DNA of 47,179 bases from a virus (Duplodnaviria; Caudoviricetes). The position numbers were made by a program, and so were the translations under genes. The stretch lies in IMG/VR virus record IMGVR_UViG_3300031701_000001, positions 1 to 47,179 of that record; one strand, 5' to 3'. Below the pieces are notes generated by a model that had not been told where the DNA came from, did not search any database, and saw only the letters and a list, made by a program, of their open reading frames with translations. The number at the start of each line of letters is the position of its first letter. Positions within the stretch are counted from its first letter, which is position 1. This document shows, in pieces, positions 12,536-39,829 of the stretch.

Positions 12536-12537
12536 AA

Positions 12538-12699
12538 TTAGTCGTCCTTAATCAGTTTAATAATTTTCACCGCCGTCCACACAATAGTTAGTATGAGGGC
12601 GATGAGCTTCAATGCCGCTTCAACGTCGGAGAAGGAGACAACCCCTAAGACCGAGCCGTTAACGGCGTATATCTTTAACCATTCCAGATAGTCTTCCAT
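12538..12699 (-). CDS. Small membrane protein/holin candidate (53 aa from ATG 12699)
   Basis: MEDYLEWLKIYAVNGSVLGVVSFSDVEAALKLIALILTIVWTAVKIIKLIKDD; the longer track start runs through a hairpin. Confidence 0.6.
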   Translation of the reverse strand: MEDYLEWLKIYAVNGSVLGVVSFSDVEAALKLIALILTIVWTAVKIIKLIKDD

Positions 12700-12709
12700 G
12701 TCAGTAAGG

Positions 12710-12743
12710 TGGCGACGCAGCCCCCGAAGGAACTGCGCCGCCA
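12710..12743 (-). terminator. 15-bp stem with a cUUCGg tetraloop just downstream of the MCP gene (terminator/attenuator or mRNA stabiliser)
   Basis: Minus-strand RNA UGGCGGCGCAGUUCC-UUCG-GGGGCUGCGUCGCCA; the G-U pairs and tetraloop fit only this strand; weak U-tail. Confidence 0.7.
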
Positions 12744-12762
12744 TTGACGACGACTAGCTAAA

Positions 12763-14025
12763 CTAGGCCACTACACCGTCACGCTTGAAGATCAGCGTTG
12801 CGCCGTGTTCACCGAACACAGGCTCAAACGCCATCTCATACGTTCCGAAGTGCTTGCCGCGAGCTTCAAGCTCGTCGGGGCAGTCAGTTGAGTACTTGTA
12901 AGCACCCGTAACAAACTTCCAGTCACCCGCGTAGTTCAGCGGACTGAACCCAAGGTTGCCGGGAGTAGTTGCAGGAACCACCAGTTGCTTCATCACGCTG
13001 GGGATCAGCGCAATCGCACCCTCGTACACACCATCACCATCACTGATGTCTTTACCCGTGTAAAGGGGGTTGATCATCGTACCCACACCCGCGTTAGGAA
13101 CAGGGCTCTGGACGGCACGTTCGCTGATGCGATGGTAGCCATTACCAGTTGAGTTGCGTTTCCAGCGCGGGGGGTTAGTGACGACAATGTGACGGAAGTT
13201 CCCGGTCACACGATCCGCGCCAATAGCTTTGAGCAATTCATTGCTCTTGCTGCTTTCACGGTAGTCGGTGCGAACATTAGCATCAGCCTTCAGCAACTTA
13301 TTAGATGCTTCCATACCGATGATCAGCGGGAACACAGGGCCATTTGGCCCCATCTCGACAAACCCATTGGAGTCACCCTCGGTGCTACCGGATTCAATTA
13401 GATTGATTGCTAATTGATCCAAGTGACCGGGGAGTAAGCCAACAGTGTCAGCCAAGACATTCACGCCTCCAGTGGAGTCATGGATTGCCTTACTCGTCAC
13501 CGCAGTGTCTACTAAGGCTTCCGCACCAGCCGCGCCACTGATAGTGACTTGGCGAGCTTTGGTCATGTACTCATTTTGGATTTTGTTTTCCAGAATGCGT
13601 TTGCTGTGTTTGCTGATTTCCTCGACGTAGGCTTGCAAGAAGCGAGCCACGTTGTATTGATACTTGAGGTTGTCTTGAGAAATTTCCGGCCCGGAGATGC
13701 TAATTCTCTCTGGACTGAATGTTTGCTCTGACATGCCCCACTCGACCCCGTTCCAAGTGCGGTCAGCAAGTCCACCGCCCGTAAGCATGTTGACTTCGCC
13801 CGCGACGGAACCGGTGTTTACAATTTTCTCCCAGCCCAACTCATCGTCGGTTGGCAGAGAATTTTCGATGTTAAAAGTGGTCTGAGACAGCCCAGTGCCG
13901 AGAGGGTAGGTTCCCTTCGGAAGAGCGTTCAGCCACACGGATCGGTTGGTTGCCTTGCGGTGGACATCGGTCGCTAACGACTCGCTATTATCCTTGAAGG
14001 CTTGAAAAATAGACCCACAGGCCAT
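12763..14025 (-). CDS. Probable major capsid protein (420 aa)
   Basis: Size, composition, a long structured leader and a strong 3' hairpin; no other MCP candidate in the genome. Confidence 0.65.
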   Translation of the reverse strand: MACGSIFQAFKDNSESLATDVHRKATNRSVWLNALPKGTYPLGTGLSQTTFNIENSLPTDDELGWEKIVNTGSVAGEVNMLTGGGLADRTWNGVEWGMSEQTFSPERISISGPEISQDNLKYQYNVARFLQAYVEEISKHSKRILENKIQNEYMTKARQVTISGAAGAEALVDTAVTSKAIHDSTGGVNVLADTVGLLPGHLDQLAINLIESGSTEGDSNGFVEMGPNGPVFPLIIGMEASNKLLKADANVRTDYRESSKSNELLKAIGADRVTGNFRHIVVTNPPRWKRNSTGNGYHRISERAVQSPVPNAGVGTMINPLYTGKDISDGDGVYEGAIALIPSVMKQLVVPATTPGNLGFSPLNYAGDWKFVTGAYKYSTDCPDELEARGKHFGTYEMAFEPVFGEHGATLIFKRDGVVA

Positions 14026-14070
14026 GATATTTCCCTTTCGTGTTTAAGTTTATTAAACGGAGAAGATGGA

Positions 14071-14165
14071 AGTCATACGTCACCCGACGAAGACAGTCTT
14101 CACCTGTCGTTTCGGGTGGCCGATGCCGAAGTAGGGCCGTGGAGTTCGCCACTCTCCGTATGGCT
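14071..14165 (-). ncRNA. Candidate structured 5' leader RNA of the MCP gene
   Basis: Nested inverted repeats: agtcatacg/cgtatggct, cacccga/tcgggtg, gacag/ctgtc, ggag/ctcc. Confidence 0.4.
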
Positions 14166-14259
14166 TTAATTGTGTAGTGCGGCTTTAGGCACTCCGCGTG
14201 TGCAAATATACTATTACCACACACCACGCCCTCTTGTTAAGCGACTTGATCATAAACCT

Positions 14260-14346
14260 TGTCATGCGCTCGTCATGCGCTGTGAATAAGTTTTTGCCCA
14301 TTCACTTGTTTAAGGACTTGCATTTCGCGCATGACATTGTTATACA
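14260..14346 (+). promoter_or_regulatory. Putative promoter (TTGCAT-17-TATACA) with three GTCATGCGC operator-like boxes
   Basis: GTCATGCGCT at 14261 and 14272; inverted GCGCATGACA at 14327-14336 inside the -35/-10 spacer; directly upstream of an RHH gene. Confidence 0.5.
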
Positions 14347-14356
14347 GTTCGCCGCG

Positions 14357-14548
14357 ATGAGTAGTCTAGTTAAGCAAACGGTAGTATTCAGATGTCCTCC
14401 CCGAATGAAGGCCCAGTTGGCCCAGTTGGCCGAGGACATGGAGGTCACGGTGTCTGATGTAATTCGATTATGCATTCGTGGCGAAATCAATAATTTAAAG
14501 GAGCGTTTTGCAAGGAGAATCGATGAAGATGATAGCCCAGTCAAGTGA
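14357..14548 (+). CDS. Ribbon-helix-helix (CopG/Arc-like) regulator (63 aa from ATG 14357)
   Basis: QTVVFRC beta-strand, MKAQLAQLAEDM helix and VSDVIRLCI helix. Confidence 0.7.
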   Translation: MSSLVKQTVVFRCPPRMKAQLAQLAEDMEVTVSDVIRLCIRGEINNLKERFARRIDEDDSPVK

Positions 14549-15869
14549 GTCAGAAGCGGCGGTGTTGGGTTGTGTTATTCTGGAGCCCTCAATACTTCCC
14601 GAAGTCGGGACGCGGGTAGGAGCCGAAGACTTCTATGATCTGCGCCACCGGAATCTGTACGAGGTGATGCTCGGCATGGAGGCTGATGGAAAAGTTATCG
14701 ACCTTTTGTCCCTTCGGCAGGAGATAACCATGTCGCTTGGCACGATGGAAAAGGTCGGTGGCATGAACTACCTATCCTCGCTCTCAAACCTCATTGCTTC
14801 TGCTGCCCACCTCCCTTACGCGCTTGGTGTCATGGCAGATAAGTCGAGGGTTCGCAAATTTTACGACACGGCCCAATCAGTGCTGAAGGTTATTAATTCT
14901 GGGGGGACGGACGGCGACAAGATCGAGGGTTGCGGACTATCCATCGCTGCTGCCCTCGAAACCAGCGGGGGCGGGGAACTCAACATCAAAGAGGTGGCCA
15001 AGGAGGCAATGAGCCAAATTGAAACCGCCTTTGAGCATGAAGGGGAATGCACTGGCATCCCCACAGGGTTCCCTGCCCTCGACTCCCGCACCACCGGACT
15101 GCATCCGGGCGAACTGGTCATCCTCGCAGCCCGTCCGGGCATGGGCAAAACCAGTCTGGCGATGGGCGTGGCAGAGCATTTAGCCGTGGATGGAGATATT
15201 CCAGTGGGCGTGTTGTCATTGGAAATGAAGTCCACCTCGCTGGTGATGCGCTCCTTCGCCTCGCGAGCAGGGATTGACGGGCGTGACCTCCGCGCTGGCA
15301 AACTTCTGGATACTGACTTTCCCAAACTAAAACGTGCCTTCGTGGAGATCGCCCAGAGCAAGCTGTATCTCGACGACTCGCACGGGATCAATCTTACCGA
15401 GGCATCGGCGCGGATACGCCGCATGGTACGAAAACACGACTGCAAGCTGGTTGTAATTGATTACTTACAGTTGATGCATGCTGGGGGAGACCACTCCGAA
15501 AGCCGAGTCTCCCAAGTCACAAGGATTTCAAATGGCCTCAAGTCTCTGGCCAACCAACTTAGCATCCCCATCCTATGTCTCTCCCAGTTGAACCGCGCCG
15601 TTGAGCATCAAGACCGCCCGCCGCGCCTATCAGATTTACGCGAATCGGGAAGCATCGAGCAGGATGCGGACATGGTTTGGTTTCTTTACCAAGACGACCC
15701 AGAGAGCCAGATCACACGGTTGATTGTGGCTAAGAACCGCAGCGGCCCCACAGGCGAGATTGCCTTGGAGTTCCAGCCCAAATTTACCCGATACATCACC
15801 CCGCGAATCGAGGACGAGGTTCATGTAAAACGTCCAGTTCACCCCGATTTCCATTTAGCAGATGCCTAA
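14523..15869 (+). CDS. dnaB: DnaB-family replicative helicase
   Basis: ESEAAVLG N-domain, TGIPTGF, ILAARPGMGKT, VIDYLQL, LSQLNR, DLRESGSIEQDAD and AKNRSGPTG. Confidence 0.97.
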   Translation: MKMIAQSSESEAAVLGCVILEPSILPEVGTRVGAEDFYDLRHRNLYEVMLGMEADGKVIDLLSLRQEITMSLGTMEKVGGMNYLSSLSNLIASAAHLPYALGVMADKSRVRKFYDTAQSVLKVINSGGTDGDKIEGCGLSIAAALETSGGGELNIKEVAKEAMSQIETAFEHEGECTGIPTGFPALDSRTTGLHPGELVILAARPGMGKTSLAMGVAEHLAVDGDIPVGVLSLEMKSTSLVMRSFASRAGIDGRDLRAGKLLDTDFPKLKRAFVEIAQSKLYLDDSHGINLTEASARIRRMVRKHDCKLVVIDYLQLMHAGGDHSESRVSQVTRISNGLKSLANQLSIPILCLSQLNRAVEHQDRPPRLSDLRESGSIEQDADMVWFLYQDDPESQITRLIVAKNRSGPTGEIALEFQPKFTRYITPRIEDEVHVKRPVHPDFHLADA

Positions 15870-15874
15870 GAAAA

Positions 15875-16252
15875 ATGAAATCACTGAATACGAAAGACTG
15901 TGTGGTCATGCGTATCCGAGACCTCGGACATTGCCCGGCCTTCAAGAACAAGAAGATTATTGCACGGGGTCGTTTGATTACCGCACCGAAGGCACGGAAA
16001 TGGATGGAAGAGGCTACGAAGGCTATGTACTCGCAGTTGTGTTCCTTGTTTCAGACAACCGGAGGCGGGACAACGACGGAGCCTTGGCAACAGTCTGCGA
16101 TTGCATCTCTGCCGTCGGACGATTGCTGGCAGCAGATACCCATGACCACGATTCGGGTAAAAAAGGTTCCCAAGGGTGAGGAAGGCGTGATCGTGATTTT
16201 AAAGAAAATTTCCAATAAGGAAACACAAGACAAACAAACCAATACAAAATAA
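15875..16252 (+). CDS. Hypothetical protein, possibly a RusA-like resolvase
   Basis: PAFKNKK N-terminal motif, a DD pair and a C-terminal beta-strand; replication-module context. Confidence 0.4.
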   Translation: MKSLNTKDCVVMRIRDLGHCPAFKNKKIIARGRLITAPKARKWMEEATKAMYSQLCSLFQTTGGGTTTEPWQQSAIASLPSDDCWQQIPMTTIRVKKVPKGEEGVIVILKKISNKETQDKQTNTK

Positions 16253-16253
16253 T

Positions 16254-16778
16254 ATGGCTAGTAAAACTAAAGAAACAAACATCGGAGGGACAGTGTCCCT
16301 AACCAACGTCAAGCTCAACTACGTTCATCTGGAAGAGATGGATGAAGGAAAATTCGGGGTGCATTGCTCCGACATTTCCGAGGATCAAAAAGCCGAGTTA
16401 GAGGCTATCGGAATCAAGCCCCGTCACGGAAATGATCGGGTAAACAAGCAGGGCGAAAAGCAACCCACTCCAGAGTGGGGCTTCTACATCAATCCTAAAA
16501 CGCAGTATGAGTTCGCAATTGTGGACGGCACTGGCGTTGAACTGAAGAGCGAAACCCGTGCGGCATTAGTCGCTCGGATAGGCGCGGGTAGCACCGCCAA
16601 CGTGGAGGTCAAGTCTGGAGCCTACAATAAGAACGGGAACTCTGGTGTGTCTGCTTATTTGCAGGGCGTCCAGATTGCGAACGAGGAAAGCCTCATTGAG
16701 CCAAGCGGTAAGCACGGCTTCAAGGCCGTAGACGGCGGCTTCGCAGCAGCACCCACCGAAGATAACGTGCCTTACTAA
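16254..16778 (+). CDS. Single-stranded DNA-binding protein (T7 gp2.5/DUF2815-like)
   Basis: IGAGSTANV and GVSAYLQGVQI motifs; acidic-aromatic C-terminal tail TEDNVPY. Confidence 0.75.
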   Translation: MASKTKETNIGGTVSLTNVKLNYVHLEEMDEGKFGVHCSDISEDQKAELEAIGIKPRHGNDRVNKQGEKQPTPEWGFYINPKTQYEFAIVDGTGVELKSETRAALVARIGAGSTANVEVKSGAYNKNGNSGVSAYLQGVQIANEESLIEPSGKHGFKAVDGGFAAAPTEDNVPY

Positions 16779-16783
16779 AATGA

Positions 16784-17077
16784 GTGGACTCACACGGGCT
16801 TAAAAAGCTGCTTGCGGCGATCATTGAGCAAGCGGTCACTGATCGCCGCCAAGCAGCCGCCCGTGGGTTACTCGACGCTGATACTTTGCCCGTAAGGGAA
16901 CTTACAGCGAAGCAATTAGATATATGTGTCAGCCTTAAATATTTTTTTGAGGATGGCGGTTTAGAGTTAGTAGCAAGGGAAGCTGGGTTTAATTTACCCA
17001 TAAAGAAAATCAAGGAGAAAGCAAATGAGCCAATTGGAAGAAAAAGATGTACGTCGAGGAATGCCAAGTGCCAGTGA
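16784..17077 (+). CDS. Hypothetical protein (97 aa)
   Basis: LLAAIIEQAVTD helix common in phage proteins; operon position. Confidence 0.55.
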   Translation: MDSHGLKKLLAAIIEQAVTDRRQAAARGLLDADTLPVRELTAKQLDICVSLKYFFEDGGLELVAREAGFNLPIKKIKEKANEPIGRKRCTSRNAKCQ

Positions 17078-18098
17078 TTTTGGGAGCTTATCAAAGTGCC
17101 CCGGAAAACATCAGTCCCAGAAGGGGCGGAAAGACAAGGAGACATCCCAAGCAGCGAGGGGAACTCTTATTCACGAATTCTTAAACAACCCCAGAGGGAG
17201 TAAAGTCCTAGAGGGAGACGAGGAGGCCATCTCGGTGGCACTGGCCATCCTCTCGGAACGGGACGCCCTACTCAAACGGGCAATGAGTAGCCCCATTCAC
17301 TACTTCAACGAGGAACGCATGTGGTATCGCGGAGACCGTTACAGCGGTGTCCCCGATGTACTTGCGATCAAGGACAACATCGGTTTCATCATCGATTACA
17401 AGACTGGGCCGATTGCCGTCACTCACGCCTCGGAGAACTTGCAGCTAATGGCACTGGCCGTTCTGGCGGATTACACTCACGGGCTGGAAGGTTGCCATGT
17501 CGCCATCATCCAACCGCCGTGCGGGCCACCTCACACTCACTACTACGACAAGGCCGCACTGAAGAAGGCGCGATGTAGGATCACAAGGATTCTACGCGCC
17601 ATCGAGGCCAAGCACCCGCGACTGAAGGCTGGGGAACCTCAGTGCCGTTACTGCTTGGCTAAGATTGATTGCCCAGCCGTCAAGGCCGCGCAGGAAGAAC
17701 TGATGTCGTTATCCACCGTCACCATGCTCACGGGGAACCAGATCAGCAATGCTCTCACGATCCTCCCCGTGGTCGAGGGGCGATGCAAGGCATTGAAGGA
17801 AGAGGCTTCGCGAAGATTGGGAGAAGATGGCGACTCGGTTCCCGGATACGGTCTGGGCAAAACCTCTCGCCGCAGAAAGGTCACGAACACCTACGAGGCT
17901 GGCATGGACATGGTGGACAACGATCTGGTCAGTAATCGTGACCTAACAGCCTGTGCCACGATCAGCTTTTCCAAGCTGGTTGGGGCCGTTAAGGATCACA
18001 CTGGGGTCAATAGGATTGAGGCCCAGTTCATGGCTGAAGAGGCACTGGGCAAGAACCTCGTTTACACAGAAGTGAAGCCGAAGGTGGTGGAGAAATGA
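17025..18098 (+). CDS. Cas4/RecB-like PD-(D/E)XK exonuclease (DUF2800-like)
   Basis: CPG...GTLIHE, GVPDV, IIDYKTG, QLMA and CRYC...CP (Fe-S-type cysteines). Confidence 0.85.
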   Translation: MSQLEEKDVRRGMPSASDFGSLSKCPGKHQSQKGRKDKETSQAARGTLIHEFLNNPRGSKVLEGDEEAISVALAILSERDALLKRAMSSPIHYFNEERMWYRGDRYSGVPDVLAIKDNIGFIIDYKTGPIAVTHASENLQLMALAVLADYTHGLEGCHVAIIQPPCGPPHTHYYDKAALKKARCRITRILRAIEAKHPRLKAGEPQCRYCLAKIDCPAVKAAQEELMSLSTVTMLTGNQISNALTILPVVEGRCKALKEEASRRLGEDGDSVPGYGLGKTSRRRKVTNTYEAGMDMVDNDLVSNRDLTACATISFSKLVGAVKDHTGVNRIEAQFMAEEALGKNLVYTEVKPKVVEK

Positions 18099-20973: not shown

Positions 20974-21945
20974 TTGAATGTGGATAATACCGAAAACAAA
21001 CTCACCTGTCTCTCCTTGTGCGCCGGGTACGGAGGAATCGAATTGGGACTCCGCCTCGCTGGCGTCGAGTTTGGCCGAGTCGTTTATGTGGAGAGGGAAT
21101 GTTTCGCCGCAGCGAACTTGGTCAACAAGATTGAAGAAGGTCGGCTGGCTCCGGGCGTTGTCCATACGGATGTTAAGACCTTCCCGTACAACAGCTTTCG
21201 AGGATGCTTTGATTACATCTTTGCTGGAATTCCGTGCCAACCGTTTTCACAGGCCGGTTCCCACAAAGCAGACGAAGACCCAAGACACCTCTTCCCGCAC
21301 ATAAAATATGCAGTACGAACTGTTCAACCAAAATTCGTTTTTATCGAGAACGTCCAAGGCATCATTAGCGCAAAACTCAAAGGCGACCAATGGGCCGACC
21401 CCGCAGGAACACCCGTCCTGCTTCATGTCATTAGAGAATTTCAGCGCATCGGTTACGAAAGCGCGTGGGGATTATTCAGTGCGGCTGAAGTTGTCGGAGA
21501 GGATGGAAGAAGATGCCCGCACCAACGCAAACGAGTTTTCCTCCTTGCAAGGAAAGGAAATGAAGTGCCGCCCGTCACTACCGAGGACTGCCGTAGTAGA
21601 GTGTCCCTTGGAGAAATCGGAGAACGGGCATTTAATGAACTGGCCGACACCCGCAGCGAGGGACGTGAAGGGCAAGTCCGGCAAGGGGCGGCAGGAGAGG
21701 AAGGGGCATCCAACCGACACGCTGTCGAATGCCGTAGTGGTATTTGGCCGTCCCGACCCGGAGAGCAACAGCAGGTCTGGGAAACTCAACCCCAACTGGG
21801 TGGAGCATCTTATGTTGGGCAAGACGGGTGCAGGGTGGACGCAACTATCGACCGGGTGGATCGCATCCGGCTCCTCGGCAACGGCGTAGTACCCGCCACT
21901 GCTGCTATCGCGTACCGGACGCTGTTGAAGGAATTAGAACGATGA
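20974..21945 (+). CDS. C5 cytosine DNA methyltransferase, alpha polypeptide (probable GTG start at 20980)
   Basis: Motif I LSLCAGYGG, IV GIPCQPFS, VI ENVQG, VIII PHQRKRVF and X LGNGVVP; no motif IX recognisable in this frame. Confidence 0.9.
   Translation: MNVDNTENKLTCLSLCAGYGGIELGLRLAGVEFGRVVYVERECFAAANLVNKIEEGRLAPGVVHTDVKTFPYNSFRGCFDYIFAGIPCQPFSQAGSHKADEDPRHLFPHIKYAVRTVQPKFVFIENVQGIISAKLKGDQWADPAGTPVLLHVIREFQRIGYESAWGLFSAAEVVGEDGRRCPHQRKRVFLLARKGNEVPPVTTEDCRSRVSLGEIGERAFNELADTRSEGREGQVRQGAAGEEGASNRHAVECRSGIWPSRPGEQQQVWETQPQLGGASYVGQDGCRVDATIDRVDRIRLLGNGVVPATAAIAYRTLLKELER
21308..21889 (+). CDS. Overlapping alternative-frame methyltransferase beta polypeptide (193 aa)
   Basis: WPTPAARDVKG (TRD-type) and KLNPNWVEHLM (motif IX-like), entirely inside the alpha gene. 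Confidence 0.65.
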   Translation: MQYELFNQNSFLSRTSKASLAQNSKATNGPTPQEHPSCFMSLENFSASVTKARGDYSVRLKLSERMEEDARTNANEFSSLQGKEMKCRPSLPRTAVVECPLEKSENGHLMNWPTPAARDVKGKSGKGRQERKGHPTDTLSNAVVVFGRPDPESNSRSGKLNPNWVEHLMLGKTGAGWTQLSTGWIASGSSATA

Positions 21946-28591: not shown

Positions 28592-28818
28592 AAACGCACT
28601 GGCATGTGACGAACAAGCCACGCTGGATTAACACCCGTCACATCATATGGTTCACCCCAACTGTCGAACCCGATGCGGGCGCGGATGTGTACTTAACGTG
28701 CGATAATGATGCAACCCATGAGTTCATCGCCGTCAACGAAACCCCCGAAGAACTGATCGACCAGCTTACAGCCCTAATCGACCAGCGGTGTTCCGGTAAC
28801 GATCCTGCACACGATTGA
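28570..28818 (+). CDS. Hypothetical protein (82 aa)
   Basis: WIN..HI...V.ETPEEL pattern (FlbD-like small proteins); converges on the giant gene. Confidence 0.5.
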   Translation: MPSEQFLKTHWHVTNKPRWINTRHIIWFTPTVEPDAGADVYLTCDNDATHEFIAVNETPEELIDQLTALIDQRCSGNDPAHD

Positions 28819-31800
28819 TTCGGGCCACGCCACTTGGAACATTCTTCCTTGCCCAGCGTAGGAAAGCATTCTGCGTGTCGGCCTTGGTTTGCATGCCCAC
28901 TCGGATGGGTTGATTGCTACGCACCACGCTCTTCAAGGATCGCAAGGACATGCCCATCTCCACCAGCGCATCCTTGGCTTCCCGTGCCGCATCAATATCG
29001 CCAGCAAGCAGCGCGTCCTTGAGGTTCACCTTTTTCGTGGTGTACTTGTCATCCGAGAAGATGCCGTTGAACTTGGACTCCACGGAGATACCCGTTTCCT
29101 CGCCAAACCTACGGGCCAAGGTGCGCGTGTAAGAAAGGTCACGCTTCGCAGCCCATAACCCCTCGGCGGGTTTGCCCGTGGCAAGTTCTTCGGCTCGACG
29201 ATACCAGCCGCGACCCAATCCCTCGGTCTGCTTCGCAAGCGGGATGTTCCTAGCCATCTCTACAAATTCCTGCTGGGCTGCTTCGGCAGACATTCCTTTC
29301 TGATACCAGCTACGCCCTGCCCCGATTAAATCGTTGGCGAGGTTGAACAACGGCGGCTTGAACGGGTCTTTCCAGCGACCACCACGGGTGGCTTGCTCCT
29401 TGGCGAGCATCGCGTAGTCACCCCAGAACCCAGTAGCTCCGGTGAACACCATGTTCTTAGTAACTCGCTCCAAAATTTTAGCCAACTTTTCTTCCTCGGC
29501 CTTGTCGATCTCTTCCAAGGATGGATCGCGGCGTTCCTTGTCCGTGAACAGGCCGCTCAACCATTGCAGCAACTCACCGAATAACATGCCACCCGCGAGG
29601 AACCGGATCGCGGGCATTGCTGTGCGATACTTCTTGCCACCCACCTTGGTTCCAAATACCAGTGGCGAGGTCACATTCATAATGATGTCGCGGCCACGTT
29701 GGAATGTCCACCGCTGGAACTGGAGCATCAGCTTGGTGATGCCGCCTTGATTGCCCATGAACAACGGGTGCTGTGCAATCGAGTAAGTGTATTGCTTCTC
29801 GGCCACACTGCGCCGGGCAAACTCTTCCACCAAGGATTGATCGCCAGACAAAAGTAGCTGGGCCTCTTCTTCTGTAAACTTCAATCGCTTCAATGCAGCC
29901 ACGCGCTGTGTCGCCAAGTACTCACCCTTCCGGTTGGCGTAGATGGCGCGGCTGGCCCGTAACCAATTCAAGCTGGCTCCCATTGTCACGCCACGCGCCA
30001 AGCGATCCATTGATTGCTTGAAGTATAATGCTTTGTTGCCAACCTCGCTTATTGCCTTGTCACCTTTGCCCTCGGAGAGACGTTCCTCCATTATCTGCGC
30101 TTGCTGGAAATCCTCCGTGATTGCCCCCATGCCCATCGCTTCCTCGACTAGCTCGGATGACTCAGCCTTCCAGTTGCGTTGGGACACATTCCGTAGCGTC
30201 CTGCCAACGGCCCGTGCCGCTTGCACCAAGGCTCTTCCCCCTTCGGGCAAGGTGGCGCGGAAACCGAACTGCTCATTAGCCAGCATCACGCCGCTTACAA
30301 AGTCACGCACCGCAGTGAAGTAACCCGATAAGTAACTGATACCCGTGATCGATACAGCCCGCTCAAAGAAACGTGATGACTTGGTGGGCGTTTGGCGGCG
30401 GCGGTAGACTGTGTTGGCCACCTCTTTCAAGTAATCCCGTACCGCTTCGTCGTGCCGCGCTGCCTTTATGGCCGCGCCAAATGCGTCTGCTGATTTATTT
30501 GTGGTCTGGCTAAACGCCCAGACTTGGGCTGCGCGGTTACTGAATTGCAGCAGGAACTGCAAGTAACCGTCCACGCTGGTATCATAAAATTCCTTGGGCA
30601 TCCGTAAGCCACGGGCGCGTTCCACGTTGGCCATGAACTCGCCGCCCTGCATCTCAGCCCCGCTGATCATGCCAGCCAAGTACTCCTCGGCAGCAGCGTC
30701 ACTCTCCAGCCCGTCCCGCACCAGCGCGTCCTTCAAACTTTGATACAAGGCTGGGTCGCGGCTGGGTTCATTGATCACATCGAGAACCCTCTGGGATAGG
30801 CGGCGGGGATAATGCAAACGCCCCATGTTCTTCAGTGGCCTCCATTTACCCTTGCCTTCTTGCACTTGGATACCCAGTTCATCCGATAACCCGCCCGTCA
30901 TCTCCGCAGTATCCTCGACCACGCGAATGAGGTTGATCGCGTTTCCATTGGTCATGTTGGTTAAGTGATCCGCTGCCCGCGCACGAGCATCGCGAGCCTC
31001 GCGCTTGATGATCACGCTCAAGGCCCGCTCAAGACGATTGTACTCTGTCCAATCCGGTTGCTCTGCCCCTTGGTTGCGTTGCTTGATTTTCCTCATCTGG
31101 GTCAAGAGGGTATGCACTGCTTGCGTTGACCCGTAGTCCTCCCGAATCTCAAAGTATTTCCCAGCTTCCTCGTGAGCTTCCTTGATCTCGGTACTGGTCA
31201 GCGGCTTCTCCCAGTTTCGCATCCCCGCGAACAGCTTGCCTTGGTACTCGCCCTTCTTGATCTCGTACTGGTACACGCGCTTGGCTAACTTGCTCAAGCC
31301 AATGTCTTCCAGTGTGTCCACTACCGAAAGCCAGTCACCTTTTATGAGCCTTAAAGCCTTCGCCCCAAGCCCACCGAAACTTACGCTGACTGGATCGCCA
31401 TTGTCACCCGCAGTTATCACGGCATCGATCTGTTCCTTGGTTGCAAACTTTGCAGCGTCCTCCTCTGACATGGTAGACCCTTCCAACGGATCGTAGGCGT
31501 AGGTGGCATTCAACTCATGGTTCTTGTCAACCATGCCCTGCTCAATGTCGATGGACTGGAAGACGATGCTGCTGGTCTTCTCGGTGATAGTGGTGTTACG
31601 CACTTGCTCATTCACCAGATCAGCGATGGGCTTGAAGATTTCTGCGTGGGCGGTGTTTTGGTCTCCGGTCACATCGCTGAAATCCATAGTGATGCCACCT
31701 CCAACACTCCCTTTGTGAACCACCGCATACGCACTCTGAATTGAAATCTTGCGCTTAAACATTCTAAGAAGGTCGGACTGCGAGACGATGTCACCGTGAA

Positions 31801-34800
31801 AAACGGTTGCTCCAAGCCCGGAACCACCCACGGCATTGGTTAACTGCTTGCCGCTTCTTTTGTCTGCTAAATATAATAGAGCATACTCGCCTTCTTTCTT
31901 TTTAATTCCAGAAAAGTCACGTTCTCTTTGCTTCACCTCCACCCATTCTGGGAATTCATACATGCTCTCGGCATGCTGCGCGGCTTCCTCCATCACAATG
32001 CTTTGAGCAGCTTTCTTTGTCTTGTGCGTAGAGGGCGTGTAGCTCCCCTCGCTGGGGTCAGCTACAATCAACTCAAAGCCCTCTTGATGGGACAGCACTG
32101 TATCGGTTAACGCTCCGCTGCCACCCGCTTTCTTCGCATACTTCTTAAACTTTTTCGGGATGATCTGGTCGTACAACATGTAAGCCCAGTCCATCTGGCT
32201 GACTTCTTTTTCGAGGGTGTAGGAGGCTTCGGGGGTAAGTAAAAAATTTTCCAGATTTGATTTGAAGGTGCGCGAGCTTCCCGACGGTATCGTGGCCAAC
32301 ACTGCCTCATGCTGCTCATCTGCCGCGCTCGCTGCTTCTTCAGCACCCTTTTTACCAATCAACTTGGCCAGCTTGGATTTGGTTACGTCAGTATGGTAAC
32401 CCGGAAGACGAATTTCCTCTCTATTCCCACCCGAATCATCCTCTTCCTTCCCAAAGTAGCGTACCGTATAAGTCCATTGCCGCACCCCATCCACCACCTT
32501 CTTCTGGTCGCGAGATATTTTCAACGACTTAACAGGGATATCAAGTTTGGAATATCGCTTGGCTGTCTCGGTTCCGTTCATCCAAGATACCTTGGAGTAA
32601 CCGTTTTCAATTGCCCACCGAAGCATACGTTTCACAGCCAGATCGTTATGCCGTGCTTTCATGGTTGGCTCTGGGGTCAGCCTATTCCCGCCACCACTGT
32701 CTTCGGCATCTGAAATCTTCTGCTCAAGGCGCATCACTATGTTGTTATAGTTGTGATACAGCTTGTTTGCTAATTGCTTGGAGCGGACACGCGCGTTGCG
32801 ATTCTTGTCTCGATCAGCCAACGCTTTGTCAAATTCAGCATCGGTCATATCCCCCATCGTTTTTTCATCCCGCTTCAAACGATATTTTTGGGTGCGATCC
32901 CGGAGAGCTTTGTAGTGCTTTAGATCAGCCTTCCACTTGGCCAGTTCTTCCGCCGTGAACCCCATCCCCTCGCCCAATGCATTCCGATAATCCTTCGCCC
33001 AGTCAGACTGCAATTCTTCGATGAACAAAATCTTGTTGCCGTTCTCGTCTACCCGATCATCAAACCTCACATGTACTACCACGTTCATGTCCCGCCAGTG
33101 GCTGGACTGGTACTTGACGGGGGCATCAGCGTCACCCATCATCGTGGGGTTCAAAGGCACGGTCAATCGCATCTCGCGATATGTACCCGGCTCGTAGCCC
33201 TTCAGCACCAAGTCACCTTGGCCGTAAGTTTCCCACCTTGTCTCGCTGCCCTCGGCTACTACCTCGTCTACTGTGACTTGGTTCATGCGGATGAAGGCCG
33301 CAACGTCTTCCTTGTGAACTTGGCCGGGCTTTAGGTTCTCATGGTCAGAAACTGCCAGCCTCCACTCTCTGTCATAGGCTTGCGTGTTCAGTTCCTCTTC
33401 CAACCCAAGGATATCAATCTCGTCCTGCGTGACACCGGGGGACTTCTTCAGCTTGGCAAGCAACTGATCCGGTGTCCAAACGTCTTGAGGTAATCGCTCG
33501 GTAACCGCAATCATCTTGCTGAAGAATCCTGCGTTGCCAGTATGGCTAACATCGAGATCACCCGCCATTGGATCAAAGGCGAATTGCTTGGTGCTGTCTG
33601 GTCGCCGCCGCCCACGCCGTGCTTCTTCAATCCGCTTATTTTCAAGCGATTCGCGGGTATCAATGTGAGTAAGCTCAACATTTTCGGGGCGTTCCATCAA
33701 CGTACTCGTAGCACTCTGCACTCGTGCAAGGACGGTCACATCGTTATAGCTAATCCCCAAAAGCGTAGCGATGTGACGCTTGAGCGTGTCCCACAAACTA
33801 TTCAAGCGGCCCATCGACGGGTAAAATGAGTTTCTCTGTTCCGCTGGGTCAGCAATGTCACTCATCTTGATGGACTGTAGAAATTTTTGAAACTTTCTGT
33901 CGGACATTGCTTCAGCCATCATTTCGTGAACGTCAGCCAACCCGTAATAATACTGGTTTGATGAGTATCCTACTCGCGAGTCCTTTGCGCCTTTGTAGAA
34001 ACTTTCGGGCTGATTGGATAATCTGTGGTGAATCAGATTCAACTCGACCACCGCAATCTCAGACTCGCTGGGTTTTCCTCCCTTGGTGAAGTCGTCAATA
34101 ACGGCTGCAACCCATTCTGAATTTAAGCCCCTCTCACGTTGGTTGAGCCAGAAATTCTCACCCCCTAAACGGTCGGCTGACCTTTTCACCACGTCATCGT
34201 GGGCGCGTGATGTTTTCCCGTGGACAATTTCGTGAATCGTGGTGGTGGTGTACTCTTTGATTTGGGCACTCATTCTAATCGAGTCTTTCAACTCTCCCGT
34301 TTCTTGAACGACATCTGGTTTCCATGCGCTTGTTTTTGAGAAGTCATCAAGAACGTGTTCAATCGGTATATCTGGGGTAGTCCCTTTGAGAACTTGCTCA
34401 CTCATCACCTTCTCAAGCTCGTTTCCATTGGCTATGATGTATTCCAGATTGCCGTGTGCCGTTGGTGGAGCATCGAATAACCCTTTTAGGAATTCGGGAG
34501 AGTTTGATACTCCCTCGTTTAAGGCTAGGGCGCGGTCTATTCTGGCAGCTTCCGCTGACTCGGCTGGGGTGGGATTATCCAGTTCTGACTCAAGTGGAGG
34601 TGACTCAACTGGGGCTGACTCAACTGGGGCGAATTCACGAACGGACTTATCATACTCAAGGTATTCCTTGGAGGTTTTCGGATGCATTGGATCAAAGGCG
34701 AATTGCTTGGACTCTGACCGGACATCCCCAAAACTTCGCCAATCTTTTCTGCTGCTAGTCTCGGACTCCATTACCGTGGAGGAAGAATCCATAACCCTAC

Positions 34801-37800
34801 TAAGAACATTAGCTTCCTCTATGTTAAGGCCAAGCACATCAGCTACGGCTTGCTTGAATCTGCTCCATAGATTTGCCGTCCCGCTTACGCCTCCCTCGCG
34901 CTGCACACCCCCCTTAAAGTTATCAAGCCCTAGCTCAGAGACTTTGATGCCCTTCAAGTAGTTCCTAAACGTGGGGTTAGACCACGCTTCAGCAATCATC
35001 TCATCAAGATTTGTTGCCCCGTATAAATCTTTCCTCTTGAAGTCATCCCGCAGCAGCAGCCTGTTGTACATCCAATGAAGTTCCGCCGCCGCCAGTTCTT
35101 CGCGGGAGACGGGGTCTTCGCGGAAAGATGCCTCTTTGCCCGCCTTCTCCGAAATGACCTCAAGCCACTCGCTAGTATTGTCATAGGTTCTTGCCCTTTC
35201 ACCGCCGTGATCCTCAAACAGCCCAAGCCGATCCATAGAATCTTGAACGACATTGCTAATTTTCCGTATGGCCTTCGCGTGTGCTGCTTCGTGAAGAGTT
35301 ACTCCGGTTAAACTTGGAGACTCACGAGATACTTCAATGGAATGCCTCCGCGTACTGTATGCTCCCCACGTTTTCGACGCACTGCCCGCCATTTGTGAGT
35401 TAAGATTGGGCTTAAATGAAAGCGCAGCGGCCTCGGTGGTTCCTTTCATCAGCCCTTCAGCCAGTGTTCTTGCCTCGGCAGACGGGCTTTCTTTGGCTAT
35501 AACCTCCAGTGCTTCGTTGTCAGTTTTACTCTGTGAAATTCTTTCATCGACCGCCGGGGTTGTCTCTATGGTATACGCATCTGCTCTGCCAGAAGTCTCA
35601 GCCTCTGCTGCCATTGGATCAAAGGCGTATTGCCTAGTACCATCGCCAACATCCCCCCTTGCTCGATCAAGGTCTCGCTTGATAACTGGGATCACCTTCT
35701 CCACGGGAGCCAACTCTCGCGTCAAGGCATCTACGATGTAGACCTCCCCATCCTTGCCCTTCAGCACATTCTGGTGATGCAGATCGCCATGCACAAAGGA
35801 TCGGTTTCCGATCACCGAGACCGCTCGCTTGACATCATCACCGATCATTACCTCAACTCCTGTGGGGGGCATCAGTTCTAGATTGCGGGTGCGGAGGTGC
35901 TTGGCAAGGTCATCGGGTGATGTGTCAACTGCATTAACATAGCGTTGCTTCGTTACAATGCCGCTCTCTACCACGCCAACAATCTCGGTGAAGACAAAGC
36001 CCCCATGATTGTTCTCTGCCCGCAGCCTCTCGGAAAACTGAAGGAAACTCTGGTTCTTATGGAGACTGTACCCCTCCAAATAGCCCGATTGATCGGCGCG
36101 GAAGTGACCCACCGGAGCCGCTTTGCCAATCCCTCCATCGGGCAGCAAGTTTACGATCTTGTACACCGCCATATTATCAATATCGAGGTACACCTCCGCC
36201 TCAGAGCCTTTATCGTGGTACTTGTATTCCCCCTCCAGCTTGGAGCGGGAAAGGAGCCGCAACTCGCGGCGAAGATTCTTGATGAGAGGGGCAGCTTTAT
36301 CGACTGCGACATCTTCAGTGGGGTGAAGCAGCGCGTCGAGTGTGAATACAGACGCTTCGTCTGGGGTTAGACCGAGACCAAGCCCGATTTCCTCAGACGC
36401 TCTAAAGATGCCTTGTGAGATTGCCGCCGCTCTTCTTCGGACATTATCGGAGAAGTCGGCCCCGTGGGCGGGTAACCTCTCGCCTCCCAAAGTTGTTTTA
36501 ATCGGGCTTGAATTTCTGGGGGGTAGGATTCCAGACTGGGCTTTGGTGAATTGGTCGCGCTTAAAGGCATTGGCGTTACTGTACTCCGACATTTCGCTTT
36601 CGTCAAGGGGATCAAAGGCCCATTGAGCGTGGTCTTTCGTCCCCGACTTCTCTGACATTCTCTTCTTGAACTCTTTGTTGGCGTTCTCTAATAAGACACG
36701 GTATTTCTTTCTAGTGATCCCTAGGTCTGTGTAAGATTCTACACCAGTCATCCCCTTCATCGTGTTTCTCAGAACGGCGGCTTGATCTGCGTCCATCTCA
36801 CTCAGCACCTCTTCCATCCTCTCGGCGCGTTGCTCAAGAGACAACACCTCATCTGGAGTGACGGCCCCCGTGTCTTGCATCACATCGCCAACCGTGCCGC
36901 CATCTTCCCCTACCTCCTTTTGCATCGAGGTGGCATCCGCGAGATTCGTCCTCACCCCAGTTGCGCCTATGCCTTCTTTGGAGCGAGTGAAATCAATTGC
37001 TAGAAGCCCTGCTCGTCGGCCAAGGGCACTGGCTAATTGCTTGTCCGACATGGCATCGAATTGCCCAGCAGCCGCTTGTTTAAGTAATGCATCCTCTACA
37101 AAAATCCGAGCCGCATCCCTCTGGTTGGCGGGCAGCTTATTAACTGCGCGGCCAGCAGCAGCCATGATCCGTTCAGCAACTGCTTCCGCATCGCGCCCAT
37201 CGATTTGCTCTTGCACCAGTGCCGCTGCATCAGCCTTAGCCTTCTCGGTAATTTCAGCCCGCGCCTTCTTTGCCGCTTCGTCCCGTGCTTCTGCGTCCGC
37301 CTCGGACTTCGCGGTTCTTGCATCTGCCCGTTCCGTTGCTGCCTCGGCCCCTGCTTTCTCAGTGGTTGGCTTTGCTGCCTTCTTCTTCGCGGGCTTAACC
37401 TCTGCTGCCTCCGCTGCTTCCGCTGCTTCCGCTGCTTCCGCTGCTTCCGCTGCTTCGTCTGCCGCCTCGGCCATTGCATCCTCGTCCAAGGCTGCTTCTT
37501 CCGCTGCCTCTGCTGCCTCCTCCTCCTTCTTCGCGGGCTTAACCTCCTCCGCTGCTTTCACCTCGGTCTTGGCCACCTCGGTCTTGGCTACTTCGGTCTC
37601 GGCCACCTCGGCCCCCTTGCCCTTCTGGGTCTTGAGGAACTTCTCGACTGCCTTGATCTCCTTCGCGATGCGCGGGTTGATTAACGTGCCCGTAGTCTTC
37701 TTGAAGAACCGGATGATGGAGTTGAGAGCTTTAGTTAGGTAACTATCGTTCTTCGGTTGCCATCCTTCCGTTGTCTTACCCGTAGCAATGCGCTGCCACG

Positions 37801-39829
37801 AATACCTAATAAATTCCTCGGCCAATTGCGCTTCGCTCTCTTGTTCCCCCCGCTTCTTGCGAATCTTGAGAATCTTGGTGCGCTCTTTCTCCGTCATCTC
37901 ACTCCACACACCCTCCAATTTCTCCTCGCGGAAAGATGTCCAAGCAGCCGTGTCGGATGGATCGCCTCCCGCTGCCAGAAAATCTGCGAACATTGCACGG
38001 TCACGGGCAACATGTCGGCCCTCTTCGTCTACGGCCCTCGCGATGTAGTCGGGGCGACGAGCAACAGCATTGTTGTCCTTCGTAAGGAAGTCCAAGTCCA
38101 CCTCGATTACCCCGCTACCCCTGTCTTCGGGCCTAACAAAAATGCCACCGCCACCTCGGTTAGTCTTGATGCTCAATGTCCCAGACTCCAGCCCCAGCCG
38201 CTCTTCCACTTCCTTCACCGCCTTGACTACCGGAGTCATCACTGCACTGGACTGCTCGTCAGCTAACGAGGCATCAGTGACATCAATGGTAACACCGTCA
38301 CGCTTGATTACCTTGGGCTTGGTGCGGGCGGGCATTGTGGGAAGGTCGGGATCGGAGCGATCAGTGACGGCATAGTTTCCTTCCTCATCAAGAATCTCGA
38401 TAGTCTCGCGGCCCGGTTTATCTAGTCGTGACTGCGACTCAACCCCCGCTGCGGAGTCTTCCATTGCTTCGGCTGCTGGCCCTTGAGGGAATGCGTCCTT
38501 GGCCAAGACTCCAGTCATATCAAAGACAATCTCTTCCCGAAGGAGTTTGGCCTTTTTCTCTAATACTTCTGCGGTTTCTGGAGAATTATTTTCTCTCGCT
38601 TCTTTTGCATGCTTCTCAAGTTCCGCTGCTCGCTGCGCCTTGCGCTGAACACTGGCAACCGAGGAATGAACCCCCCCGAAAAGAGCCCCCACCAAGCCGC
38701 CAACCAACGCAGCTTCCCCTAGTCCATGTCTTACGTCTCTTAGCTCATCGTACTTGGCTAGATGTGCAGCGGTAAGGTTGAGCAAGAGTGTCTGTCCAGC
38801 TTCTTGCGTGGCCTCTGATGCCGCTGCCCCAGCCACATTACCAAGGTAAGAGCCAGCGATATCTCCCCATCTACCCTTTGAAGCCCTATCCATTCTCGCA
38901 AGTAATTTTGAACTTGCGCCCCCCGCGCCGAATGCCTCAGTAAGTCCACCCACTGCATTAATGCCGAACGCAAGCCACAGCTTGTTAAGTTCTTCTGGCG
39001 TTGGTTCTCGGCCCTCGTCCGCTGCCTTCTTGTAAACATGGTAACGGGCATCCTCCCAGCCACCAACGCCGTTAACTGCTGCGCCAAGTGGGGCGACACC
39101 CTTCCACCGATACATTGCCGCCAAGGCTTGCTGCTCTGCTATTCCTCCCTCGGCAAACTTGGCTGCAATTTCTTTCGTCTTGAGTGCGCCGATCTTTTCA
39201 AGCTCCTTCAACGTGGCTCCAGAGACCGGGCCACCGTGGGCTAACCCCCTTGTTGCATCTGTCTTGGCTGCTTGTTTGGCCAGAGCTTTCTTGCCAGTAG
39301 CTAGTACTGAGGCTTTTGTTGCAGCCTTAAACGGTGCAGCAAGAAGCCCACCTCCAGCCATGAACCCTAGACCAGAGCCAATTCCGCTTGCAGCCTTGTC
39401 AGCCCAAAATTCCCCCTCGTATTCTGGGTTTCTCCACTCATCTGGGAAAATCGCTTTCCCCATCTCATCAAAGCCAACACCTATTTGGTAAAGAGGGTTA
39501 TAAGTGAGCGGTGTGTCCAAGGGTTCCCCCGCAATCCCGCCAAGAGTTTTATCTATCGCGAATTTCCCAACAAGACCGCCAGCCTTAAACAAGTCGGCCA
39601 CTGCGGTGCTGACGAAAGTTTGGCCAAGGCCAACAACAGCAGTGCTAAATCGCCCTCGTTCTAACCGCGCAAAACGCTTTTCCCTCGCCGCCCTTTCCCT
39701 CTCATCCATGTGGGATACATCTCGACCCATTGTCCCCGAAGGGCTGGCGTAAAGGTACGAAATATTATCTTCCTCTTCGTAAACCTCCTCCAACGAAAGT
39801 GGTTGCTTGTCTTGTTCTGTGACCTCCAT
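28766..39829 (-). CDS. Giant polyvalent virion/ejection protein (3687 aa): sigma-like, kinase-like, two zincin peptidase and other modules
   Basis: Uninterrupted 11-kb ORF with an AGGAG RBS; last gene of the podovirus-like tail/ejection operon; HExxH twice, HGDLHxxN, ECF-like regions 2 and 4, five AFDP-type motifs. Confidence 0.9.
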   Translation of the reverse strand: MEVTEQDKQPLSLEEVYEEEDNISYLYASPSGTMGRDVSHMDERERAAREKRFARLERGRFSTAVVGLGQTFVSTAVADLFKAGGLVGKFAIDKTLGGIAGEPLDTPLTYNPLYQIGVGFDEMGKAIFPDEWRNPEYEGEFWADKAASGIGSGLGFMAGGGLLAAPFKAATKASVLATGKKALAKQAAKTDATRGLAHGGPVSGATLKELEKIGALKTKEIAAKFAEGGIAEQQALAAMYRWKGVAPLGAAVNGVGGWEDARYHVYKKAADEGREPTPEELNKLWLAFGINAVGGLTEAFGAGGASSKLLARMDRASKGRWGDIAGSYLGNVAGAAASEATQEAGQTLLLNLTAAHLAKYDELRDVRHGLGEAALVGGLVGALFGGVHSSVASVQRKAQRAAELEKHAKEARENNSPETAEVLEKKAKLLREEIVFDMTGVLAKDAFPQGPAAEAMEDSAAGVESQSRLDKPGRETIEILDEEGNYAVTDRSDPDLPTMPARTKPKVIKRDGVTIDVTDASLADEQSSAVMTPVVKAVKEVEERLGLESGTLSIKTNRGGGGIFVRPEDRGSGVIEVDLDFLTKDNNAVARRPDYIARAVDEEGRHVARDRAMFADFLAAGGDPSDTAAWTSFREEKLEGVWSEMTEKERTKILKIRKKRGEQESEAQLAEEFIRYSWQRIATGKTTEGWQPKNDSYLTKALNSIIRFFKKTTGTLINPRIAKEIKAVEKFLKTQKGKGAEVAETEVAKTEVAKTEVKAAEEVKPAKKEEEAAEAAEEAALDEDAMAEAADEAAEAAEAAEAAEAAEAAEVKPAKKKAAKPTTEKAGAEAATERADARTAKSEADAEARDEAAKKARAEITEKAKADAAALVQEQIDGRDAEAVAERIMAAAGRAVNKLPANQRDAARIFVEDALLKQAAAGQFDAMSDKQLASALGRRAGLLAIDFTRSKEGIGATGVRTNLADATSMQKEVGEDGGTVGDVMQDTGAVTPDEVLSLEQRAERMEEVLSEMDADQAAVLRNTMKGMTGVESYTDLGITRKKYRVLLENANKEFKKRMSEKSGTKDHAQWAFDPLDESEMSEYSNANAFKRDQFTKAQSGILPPRNSSPIKTTLGGERLPAHGADFSDNVRRRAAAISQGIFRASEEIGLGLGLTPDEASVFTLDALLHPTEDVAVDKAAPLIKNLRRELRLLSRSKLEGEYKYHDKGSEAEVYLDIDNMAVYKIVNLLPDGGIGKAAPVGHFRADQSGYLEGYSLHKNQSFLQFSERLRAENNHGGFVFTEIVGVVESGIVTKQRYVNAVDTSPDDLAKHLRTRNLELMPPTGVEVMIGDDVKRAVSVIGNRSFVHGDLHHQNVLKGKDGEVYIVDALTRELAPVEKVIPVIKRDLDRARGDVGDGTRQYAFDPMAAEAETSGRADAYTIETTPAVDERISQSKTDNEALEVIAKESPSAEARTLAEGLMKGTTEAAALSFKPNLNSQMAGSASKTWGAYSTRRHSIEVSRESPSLTGVTLHEAAHAKAIRKISNVVQDSMDRLGLFEDHGGERARTYDNTSEWLEVISEKAGKEASFREDPVSREELAAAELHWMYNRLLLRDDFKRKDLYGATNLDEMIAEAWSNPTFRNYLKGIKVSELGLDNFKGGVQREGGVSGTANLWSRFKQAVADVLGLNIEEANVLSRVMDSSSTVMESETSSRKDWRSFGDVRSESKQFAFDPMHPKTSKEYLEYDKSVREFAPVESAPVESPPLESELDNPTPAESAEAARIDRALALNEGVSNSPEFLKGLFDAPPTAHGNLEYIIANGNELEKVMSEQVLKGTTPDIPIEHVLDDFSKTSAWKPDVVQETGELKDSIRMSAQIKEYTTTTIHEIVHGKTSRAHDDVVKRSADRLGGENFWLNQRERGLNSEWVAAVIDDFTKGGKPSESEIAVVELNLIHHRLSNQPESFYKGAKDSRVGYSSNQYYYGLADVHEMMAEAMSDRKFQKFLQSIKMSDIADPAEQRNSFYPSMGRLNSLWDTLKRHIATLLGISYNDVTVLARVQSATSTLMERPENVELTHIDTRESLENKRIEEARRGRRRPDSTKQFAFDPMAGDLDVSHTGNAGFFSKMIAVTERLPQDVWTPDQLLAKLKKSPGVTQDEIDILGLEEELNTQAYDREWRLAVSDHENLKPGQVHKEDVAAFIRMNQVTVDEVVAEGSETRWETYGQGDLVLKGYEPGTYREMRLTVPLNPTMMGDADAPVKYQSSHWRDMNVVVHVRFDDRVDENGNKILFIEELQSDWAKDYRNALGEGMGFTAEELAKWKADLKHYKALRDRTQKYRLKRDEKTMGDMTDAEFDKALADRDKNRNARVRSKQLANKLYHNYNNIVMRLEQKISDAEDSGGGNRLTPEPTMKARHNDLAVKRMLRWAIENGYSKVSWMNGTETAKRYSKLDIPVKSLKISRDQKKVVDGVRQWTYTVRYFGKEEDDSGGNREEIRLPGYHTDVTKSKLAKLIGKKGAEEAASAADEQHEAVLATIPSGSSRTFKSNLENFLLTPEASYTLEKEVSQMDWAYMLYDQIIPKKFKKYAKKAGGSGALTDTVLSHQEGFELIVADPSEGSYTPSTHKTKKAAQSIVMEEAAQHAESMYEFPEWVEVKQRERDFSGIKKKEGEYALLYLADKRSGKQLTNAVGGSGLGATVFHGDIVSQSDLLRMFKRKISIQSAYAVVHKGSVGGGITMDFSDVTGDQNTAHAEIFKPIADLVNEQVRNTTITEKTSSIVFQSIDIEQGMVDKNHELNATYAYDPLEGSTMSEEDAAKFATKEQIDAVITAGDNGDPVSVSFGGLGAKALRLIKGDWLSVVDTLEDIGLSKLAKRVYQYEIKKGEYQGKLFAGMRNWEKPLTSTEIKEAHEEAGKYFEIREDYGSTQAVHTLLTQMRKIKQRNQGAEQPDWTEYNRLERALSVIIKREARDARARAADHLTNMTNGNAINLIRVVEDTAEMTGGLSDELGIQVQEGKGKWRPLKNMGRLHYPRRLSQRVLDVINEPSRDPALYQSLKDALVRDGLESDAAAEEYLAGMISGAEMQGGEFMANVERARGLRMPKEFYDTSVDGYLQFLLQFSNRAAQVWAFSQTTNKSADAFGAAIKAARHDEAVRDYLKEVANTVYRRRQTPTKSSRFFERAVSITGISYLSGYFTAVRDFVSGVMLANEQFGFRATLPEGGRALVQAARAVGRTLRNVSQRNWKAESSELVEEAMGMGAITEDFQQAQIMEERLSEGKGDKAISEVGNKALYFKQSMDRLARGVTMGASLNWLRASRAIYANRKGEYLATQRVAALKRLKFTEEEAQLLLSGDQSLVEEFARRSVAEKQYTYSIAQHPLFMGNQGGITKLMLQFQRWTFQRGRDIIMNVTSPLVFGTKVGGKKYRTAMPAIRFLAGGMLFGELLQWLSGLFTDKERRDPSLEEIDKAEEEKLAKILERVTKNMVFTGATGFWGDYAMLAKEQATRGGRWKDPFKPPLFNLANDLIGAGRSWYQKGMSAEAAQQEFVEMARNIPLAKQTEGLGRGWYRRAEELATGKPAEGLWAAKRDLSYTRTLARRFGEETGISVESKFNGIFSDDKYTTKKVNLKDALLAGDIDAAREAKDALVEMGMSLRSLKSVVRSNQPIRVGMQTKADTQNAFLRWARKNVPSGVARINRVQDRYRNTAGRLGL
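37380..37610. repeat. Low-complexity E/A/K linker repeats in the giant gene
   Basis: (gctgcttcc)n encoding EAA repeats; cttcttcgcgggcttaacctc (EVKPAKK) twice; TEVAK repeats. Confidence 0.8.

Follow-up and report, generated by a model that had tools for sequence, protein, structure and literature searches.

A gene for a very large phage protein raises the question of whether the protein is cut into its parts and, if so, where and by what. The window, meaning the whole stretch of 47,179 nt that was analysed (positions 1 to 47,179 of the IMG/VR virus record IMGVR_UViG_3300031701_000001; Duplodnaviria, Caudoviricetes), contains only one open reading frame (ORF) of more than 1000 amino acids, and this gene encodes a giant protein built of several modules. 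Five copies of a short peptide, QWAFDPL being the first and TYAYDPL the last, lie between these modules and are named junction tags here. We found that such tags sit at module joints in the relatives of the giant protein, that they change in step within a protein, and that they co-occur with a domain carrying an EExxH motif. Sequence comparison and predicted structure suggest that this EExxH domain may cleave the tags in cis and so release the modules while injection proceeds or afterwards, a reading to which we give an even chance.

The five motifs were found at the nucleotide and residue positions given in the original prediction (Table 1), with spacings of 331, 309, 373 and 694 amino acids. 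The giant protein contains 14 Asp-Pro dipeptides, and the form [FYW]DP is found only in the five tags; the six frames of the window contain [FYW]A[FY]DP only in these same five copies. When the protein was shuffled 2000 times, [FYW]A[FY]DP[LM] occurred with a mean of 0.0005 and a maximum of one, and a de novo search returned the tag as the top-ranked repeated motif of the giant protein. The AlphaFold model of the region spanning the sigma-like module, tag 1, the kinase-like module and tag 2 (aa 860-1440, 4 sequences) was poor, with a mean predicted local distance difference test score (pLDDT) of 43; its confident sigma-like part ends just ahead of tag 1, and it is uninformative on tag 2. The flanks of the tags reached only the 52nd-89th percentile of a composition-based disorder proxy.

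The motif was scanned in long homologues of the giant protein, seven of which (P0001-P0007) were obtained by searching with its C-terminal module and scoring 2182 candidates. A related tag was present at the same joints in all seven while the middle modules were swapped, and the joint positions in these relatives bore out the claim that the tags divide the protein into modules. The BLAST blocks shared with the giant protein end at tag 2 (aa 1406-1408) for P0001-P0004 and restart at tag 5 (aa 2776-2777) for P0001-P0003 and P0007, and between these two positions the relatives carry other modules with a related tag at each joint. Three tags were counted in each of P0001-P0005, two in P0006 and five in P0007, which also has one look-alike inside a domain. 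The peptide of tag 1 is kept as WAF[DN]PLD in L001 and L006. Furthermore, P0005 and P0006 are near-identical around one module found only in P0005, and P0006 runs from the left side of one tag straight into the right side of the following tag, placing the crossover in the tag. The C-terminal module of the giant protein is also present in P0010, P0011 and P0086, which bear other tags, namely a Glu...Tyr tag in the first two and TRETE, together with a divergent EExxH, in P0086. In L006 a stop, either real or a sequencing error, interrupts the giant gene within its C-terminal module and gives two parts, 8532-15533 and 15579-17429.

The giant protein has several features of the polyvalent proteins defined by Iyer et al. 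(2017; PMC5512222). It joins several unrelated domains in one polypeptide (sigma-like, kinase-like, three zincin-like and the IEELQSDW module), it shares with the described members the IEELQSDW module and, in its homologues, Kinase-PolyVal, and its gene lies among phage virion genes. The IEELQSDW module was common to 103 giant proteins, many of them with ART-PolyVal, LPD or ddrB-ParB Pfam domains, which gave 91 clusters after dereplication. Because most of 112 proteins yielded no clear tag with a de novo finder, the tests were anchored on two unrelated module ends, available in 85 proteins for the IEELQSDW module and in 49 for an ART-type tail, with patterns that were verified against the sequences. 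In the 34 dereplicated proteins having both anchors, the residues after the anchored aromatic agreed within a protein (0 of 20,000 permutations; p<1/20,000). No such agreement was seen for the four residues before the aromatic (p 0.15), and it was borderline for the stretch 8-14 residues beyond it (p 0.048). P0007 and P0005 carry the family tag at the site where other proteins have DIR[FY]S. Tag type also went along with peptidase type: of the 18 proteins with one HExxH clade, 17 had an F/Y-Q tag, and 9 Q tags were found apart from this clade (Fisher p 4e-11, 91 dereplicated proteins), and another zincin subgroup had the FSP[KR] tag in 4/4. The F/Y-Q pairing spans 10 of the 36 C-terminal scaffold clusters, and in the 4 mixed scaffold clusters the member with the Q tag was the one having the zincin of the F/Y-Q clade. 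Judged from these sequences, junction tags are a general feature of polyvalent proteins, of which the window has one variant.

Which domain might read the tag was examined among the zincin-like domains of the giant protein. The EExxH domain has the only zincin-like motif common to all 7 long homologues, and E602, E603, H606 and E672 are invariant in 8 aligned sequences of 20-88% identity to the query; all eight have EExxH in place of the HExxH of zincin metallopeptidases. The AlphaFold2 model of this domain had a pLDDT of 85, and its comparison with 48,161 chains (VIA) returned zinc peptidases in all of the top 13 rows (Z 5.3-6.6), several of these alignments reaching the EExxH helix. The best Foldseek match was to M1 aminopeptidases (E 0.011). 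In the predicted model E672, a candidate for the third ligand of gluzincin type, is located on a later helix, and in ESM Atlas feature searches the EExxH domain and HExxH module 1 appeared to share neighbour clusters. A profile search against solved sequences found nothing better than E 0.65, and the papers found on "EExxH" all concerned metal transporters by title. The EExxH domain thus looks zincin-like in its predicted fold and is a putative enzyme, and the candidate reader of the tag is probably this domain.

In the mechanism that we propose, a lineage-specific tag at the joints of swappable modules would be a cleavage signal read by the protein's own conserved EExxH domain. Zinc would be bound by E602, H606 and E672 with E603 as the base. 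With injection under way or complete, the cut, which we guess from zincin preferences to fall before one of the tag's aromatic residues, would release the modules, the sigma-like and kinase-like ones among them. Because the same peptide has to be encoded at each joint, the tags would double as brief stretches of DNA homology where in-frame gain and loss of modules is likely. The original prediction had taken the tags for cleavage sites, possibly of the embedded zincins, and had pointed to Asp-Pro chemistry of the FrpC type; the tags stay the best candidates for processing sites at module joints, and neither this chemistry nor the two HExxH domains as general cutters are supported. The wider generalisation, held with a little less than even confidence, is that polyvalent proteins may be polyproteins with a protease code, in which each lineage pairs its own cis zincin, in this case an atypical EExxH enzyme, with its own tag and the tag also serves as a DNA crossover for in-frame, release-marked modules.

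Several observations weigh against cleavage by the EExxH domain. Its fold matches score modestly (Z no higher than 6.6, Foldseek E no lower than 0.011), an hhalign comparison of its profile with seven HExxH clusters reached a probability of 5% at most, and zincin sites with substitutions, among which His to Glu is enriched, have been described as inactive (PMC3650047). In 15 of the 18 F/Y-Q cases the scored tag is followed by the zincin at a distance of 27-38 aa, and some of the association between tag and zincin can therefore be put down to linkage. A module tree supported just 5 independent pairs, of which 3.8 were concordant and 0 discordant (p 0.125), making this link not significant after phylogenetic correction. 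Of the 91 tagged proteins, 29 had no member of the seven HExxH groups that were clustered, and P0010 and P0011 are tagged yet contain neither HExxH nor EExxH. Finally, the virion RNA polymerase (vRNAP) of phage N4, which has a zincin, is packaged unprocessed (PMC5512222), was purified full-length (PMC13492108) and is whole in two structures of 2026 (PMC13434306, PMC13492108).

Some of these observations would fit a tag that is never cut and serves as a docking motif, letting a catalytically dead EExxH domain, a chaperone or the ejection channel take hold of each module for packaging, unfolding or translocation. The substituted site, the 29 tagged proteins and the whole N4 vRNAP, modelled as beads on a string (PMC13434306), are in its favour, and agreement of tags within a protein fits any shared reader. 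Nevertheless, docking leaves the invariance of the putative base E603 and third ligand E672, and the way in which tag class follows peptidase clade, poorly accounted for, and we regard it as unlikely.

Another protease could also cut the tags, be it the HExxH pair, a host protease acting after injection or an unrecognised phage protease. The two HExxH peptidase-like domains claimed for the giant protein are indeed present; they are paralogues of 26% identity, both with an intact HExxH...E, and tags do occur in proteins having no detected cis zincin. However, both HExxH modules are absent from 7/7 homologues that retain the tags and behave as swappable cargo, which speaks against them as the general cutter. 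No protease was found among the other ORFs of the window (30 scanned by Pfam, 17 by PHROGs), and, as said above, the motif is in none of its other reading frames. A cutter other than the EExxH domain is accordingly given a low probability, below that of docking.

The tags are also repeats at the DNA level, and the motif could be mainly a recombination joint for in-frame module exchange with the peptide as a by-product. The word GCCTTTGATCC is present exactly in four window copies. A stretch of 26 bases is identical between tags 3 and 4, whereas the modules that precede them reach only 26% identity, and the DNA of tag 2 is 88% identical to this 26-nt repeat. Against a null built from each gene's own codon use and the next base, the window tags used the same codon for identical residues in 38 of 47 comparisons (null 19.4; 0/20,000). 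The agreement was 33/48 in L006 (p 0.005), at chance in L001 (6/17) and too thin to inform in L002 (3/4). In 10 other polyvalent genes it was 56/109, again at chance; the junctions of these genes were picked by eye because the anchored DNA set gave only 2 clean tag pairs. The tags of the window and of L006, another phage, share identical runs of 17-19 nt at non-equivalent joints. In addition, the crossover between P0005 and P0006 falls in a tag, and the window encodes a Gp2.5-like annealing protein and an exonuclease. The repeats, the codon agreement in the window and in L006, the shared runs, this crossover and these two genes agree with recombination at the tags. On the other side, the tag peptide is retained where silent codons have diverged (L001 and the 10 other genes), which indicates that selection acts on the peptide; the tag DNA word, with only 11 single, unrelated hits in viral contigs, is no widespread site; the 30 ORFs scanned included no recognisable site-specific recombinase; and homology leaves the coupling to the peptidase clade unexplained. 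On the simplest reading, the peptide is what selection maintains, and the DNA identity comes from recent module gains, in which recombination at a tag copied its DNA. A motif that is mainly a DNA joint is thus considered improbable, marginally more so than cutting by another protease. Recombination at conserved motifs takes place in tail-fibre genes. Those motifs and the cassettes of polymorphic toxins (for the cassettes, PMC5512222) likewise offer a short conserved boundary for in-frame module swaps; the window tag differs from both in that its peptide outlasts DNA identity and tracks the peptidase clade.

Self-cleavage at Asp-Pro of the FrpC type, or acid lability of this bond, is very improbable despite the Asp-Pro in all five window tags, as the Asp is not needed (Asp 14, Ala 5 and Asn 2 in 21 tags of six family proteins, hence Asn or Ala in 7/21, with Ala and Pro constant but both part of the search pattern), the equivalent tags of other polyvalent proteins lack the dipeptide, no EF-hand-like D-x-[DN]-x-[DN]-G was found within 180 aa of the five window sites, and the segments after them are unrelated except for the two paralogous peptidase modules, whereas FrpC carries a dedicated calcium-binding module after the Pro, required for cleavage (residues 415-591; PMC7078468), and resembles the giant protein in the dipeptide only. 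Three further identities were tried and rejected. A site-specific recombination cassette was set aside in view of the 11 single unrelated DNA hits, the lack of a recombinase among the 30 ORFs and the lack of DNA identity in L001, and a resemblance between the tag DNA and the complement of the 16S rRNA tail was dismissed because no GGAGG precedes the tag DNA. Motifs binding the beta clamp, of the QL[SD]LF type, have an invariant Gln and a terminal Leu/Phe; the tags have Gln in 12 of 21, and a Pro follows, which excluded this identity.

Self-processing of polyvalent proteins by such zincins was predicted by Iyer et al., who cite the processing of P1 DdrB (PMC5512222); their main text names no junction motif or cleavage site and does not mention "sigma". 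A paper on crAss-like phages speculates that a zincin cleaves fused proteins (10.1101/2020.03.07.982082), and a preprint on phi24B reports a polyvalent protein in virions (10.64898/2026.04.10.717836). No description of junction tags of this sort was found in the literature, the coverage being thin for subscription journals. The giant protein is like the phage-type polyvalent proteins in its size, its position in a virion block and its kinase-like and zincin-like modules, and its homologues contain the ART-PolyVal and Kinase-PolyVal modules of those proteins; HExxH and HExxxH variants are described in the main text of that study, and not EExxH as here (PMC5512222). The N4 vRNAP, gp50, is likewise about 3500 aa long, ejected, and made of linker-joined domains including one with HExxH (PMC13434306, PMC13492108). 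It differs in having an RNA polymerase module, absent from the giant protein, whose N-terminus matches weakly to the virion RNA polymerase phrog_2206 (E 5.6e-4), and in being reported intact, with no repeated tag mentioned in the accessible portions of these two reports (PMC13434306, PMC13492108).

New relative to the 2017 prediction are the exact candidate sites, the atypical EExxH candidate enzyme and the role at the DNA level. That prediction came with neither sites nor an assigned enzyme; the tag supplies five exact positions, and the comparison favours one candidate enzyme over two others, which makes the prediction testable with short recombinant fragments. If the reading is true, bacteriophages use polyprotein processing in the style of other viruses with lineage-specific pairs of protease and tag, thousands of unannotated giant proteins could be divided into modules by means of their tags, and orthogonal pairs of this kind could serve as reagents.

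Table 1. Location of the giant gene, its modules and its junction tags in the window
Feature	Residues (aa)	Coordinates (nt)	Strand	Remarks
Giant polyvalent protein gene	3687 in all	28766..39829	(-)	Closes the block of tail and internal-virion genes
Conserved N-terminal scaffold	1-500	38330..39829	(-)	Gly/Ala-rich; one hydrophobic stretch near aa 369
EExxH...E zincin-like domain	505-745	37595..38317	(-)	Motif at 38012-38026; E672 at 37814-37816
ECF sigma-factor-like module	about 880-1062	36644..37192	(-)	By Foldseek; Sigma70_ECF in a homologue
Tag 1 QWAFDPL	1069-1075	36605..36625	(-)	After the last confidently folded sigma helix
Kinase-like module		35633..36604	(-)	Kinase-PolyVal E 0.0013, below cut-off; counterpart in P0001-P0004 and P0007
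Tag 2 QYAFDPM	1400-1406	35612..35632	(-)	Homology of P0001-P0004 stops here
HExxH peptidase-like module 1		34706..35611	(-)	HEAAH at 35279-35293
Tag 3 QFAFDPM	1709-1715	34685..34705	(-)	Inside the 26-nt repeat 34685-34710
HExxH peptidase-like module 2		33587..34684	(-)	HEIVH at 34220-34234
Tag 4 QFAFDPM	2082-2088	33566..33586	(-)	Inside the 26-nt repeat 33566-33591
IEELQSDW module		31505..33565	(-)	No Pfam match; widespread in polyvalent proteins
Tag 5 TYAYDPL	2776-2782	31484..31504	(-)	Homology of P0001-P0003 and P0007 starts here
Conserved C-terminal module		28766..31483	(-)	43-54% identity in P0001-P0007

The labels given earlier to the modules between the tags were also checked. The sigma-like label was upheld by a fold match to ECF sigma L (Foldseek E 3e-4, in a list of mostly sigma factors) and by a Sigma70_ECF match in the homologue P0005 (E 5e-4). 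The kinase-like label is carried weakly by the giant protein itself, where Kinase-PolyVal stays below the cut-off, and this domain is above the cut-off in the homologues P0005 and P0009. A Pfam scan of the whole giant protein returned nothing useful and matched no LPD model. Searches with two of its modules against annotated or cultured phage records gave no match, and a single-sequence search of viral contigs found no relative.

The sigma-like module is conserved in the family and follows directly after the EExxH domain in a presumably injected protein; it could redirect the host RNA polymerase at entry. Between these two domains, tandem repeats of 9 nt and 15 nt at 37392-37611 encode an Ala/Glu/Lys-rich linker, and P0004 has about 1400 extra residues at the position of this linker. 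The giant gene follows tail-collar, SU10-adaptor-like and unannotated genes, and the window also has a terminase. Because it stands at the end of this block in a window that encodes a terminase, the giant gene was read as coding for a phage internal virion protein, which would be packaged into the virion and ejected with the DNA.

Some other observations were made on tags and modules outside the family. A tag class [VLF]-x-E-x4-Y occurs at the joints of giant proteins (P0010, P0011, L059 and others); 6 of 9 proteins with this class have no HExxH domain, and some have RadC/JAB domains. The IEELQSDW module is also found in stand-alone ORFs of 600-1600 aa (L073, L078, L080, L082, L011, L016, L019, L063 and others), some of them cut by locus ends. 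What comes after the module end in these ORFs is often either a short hydrophobic run rich in Gly and Ala with an acidic tail, or F/Y-x-x-GG-x-V, and these trailing sequences are possibly a packaging or processing signal. Elsewhere in the window, a 420-aa ORF (12763-14025, minus strand) that has no Pfam or PHROGs match, on the strand opposite to the preceding terminase and portal-sized genes, may be the major capsid gene. The gene for a C5 cytosine methylase (20974-21945, plus strand) is overlapped in a different frame by a 193-aa ORF (21308-21889, plus strand).

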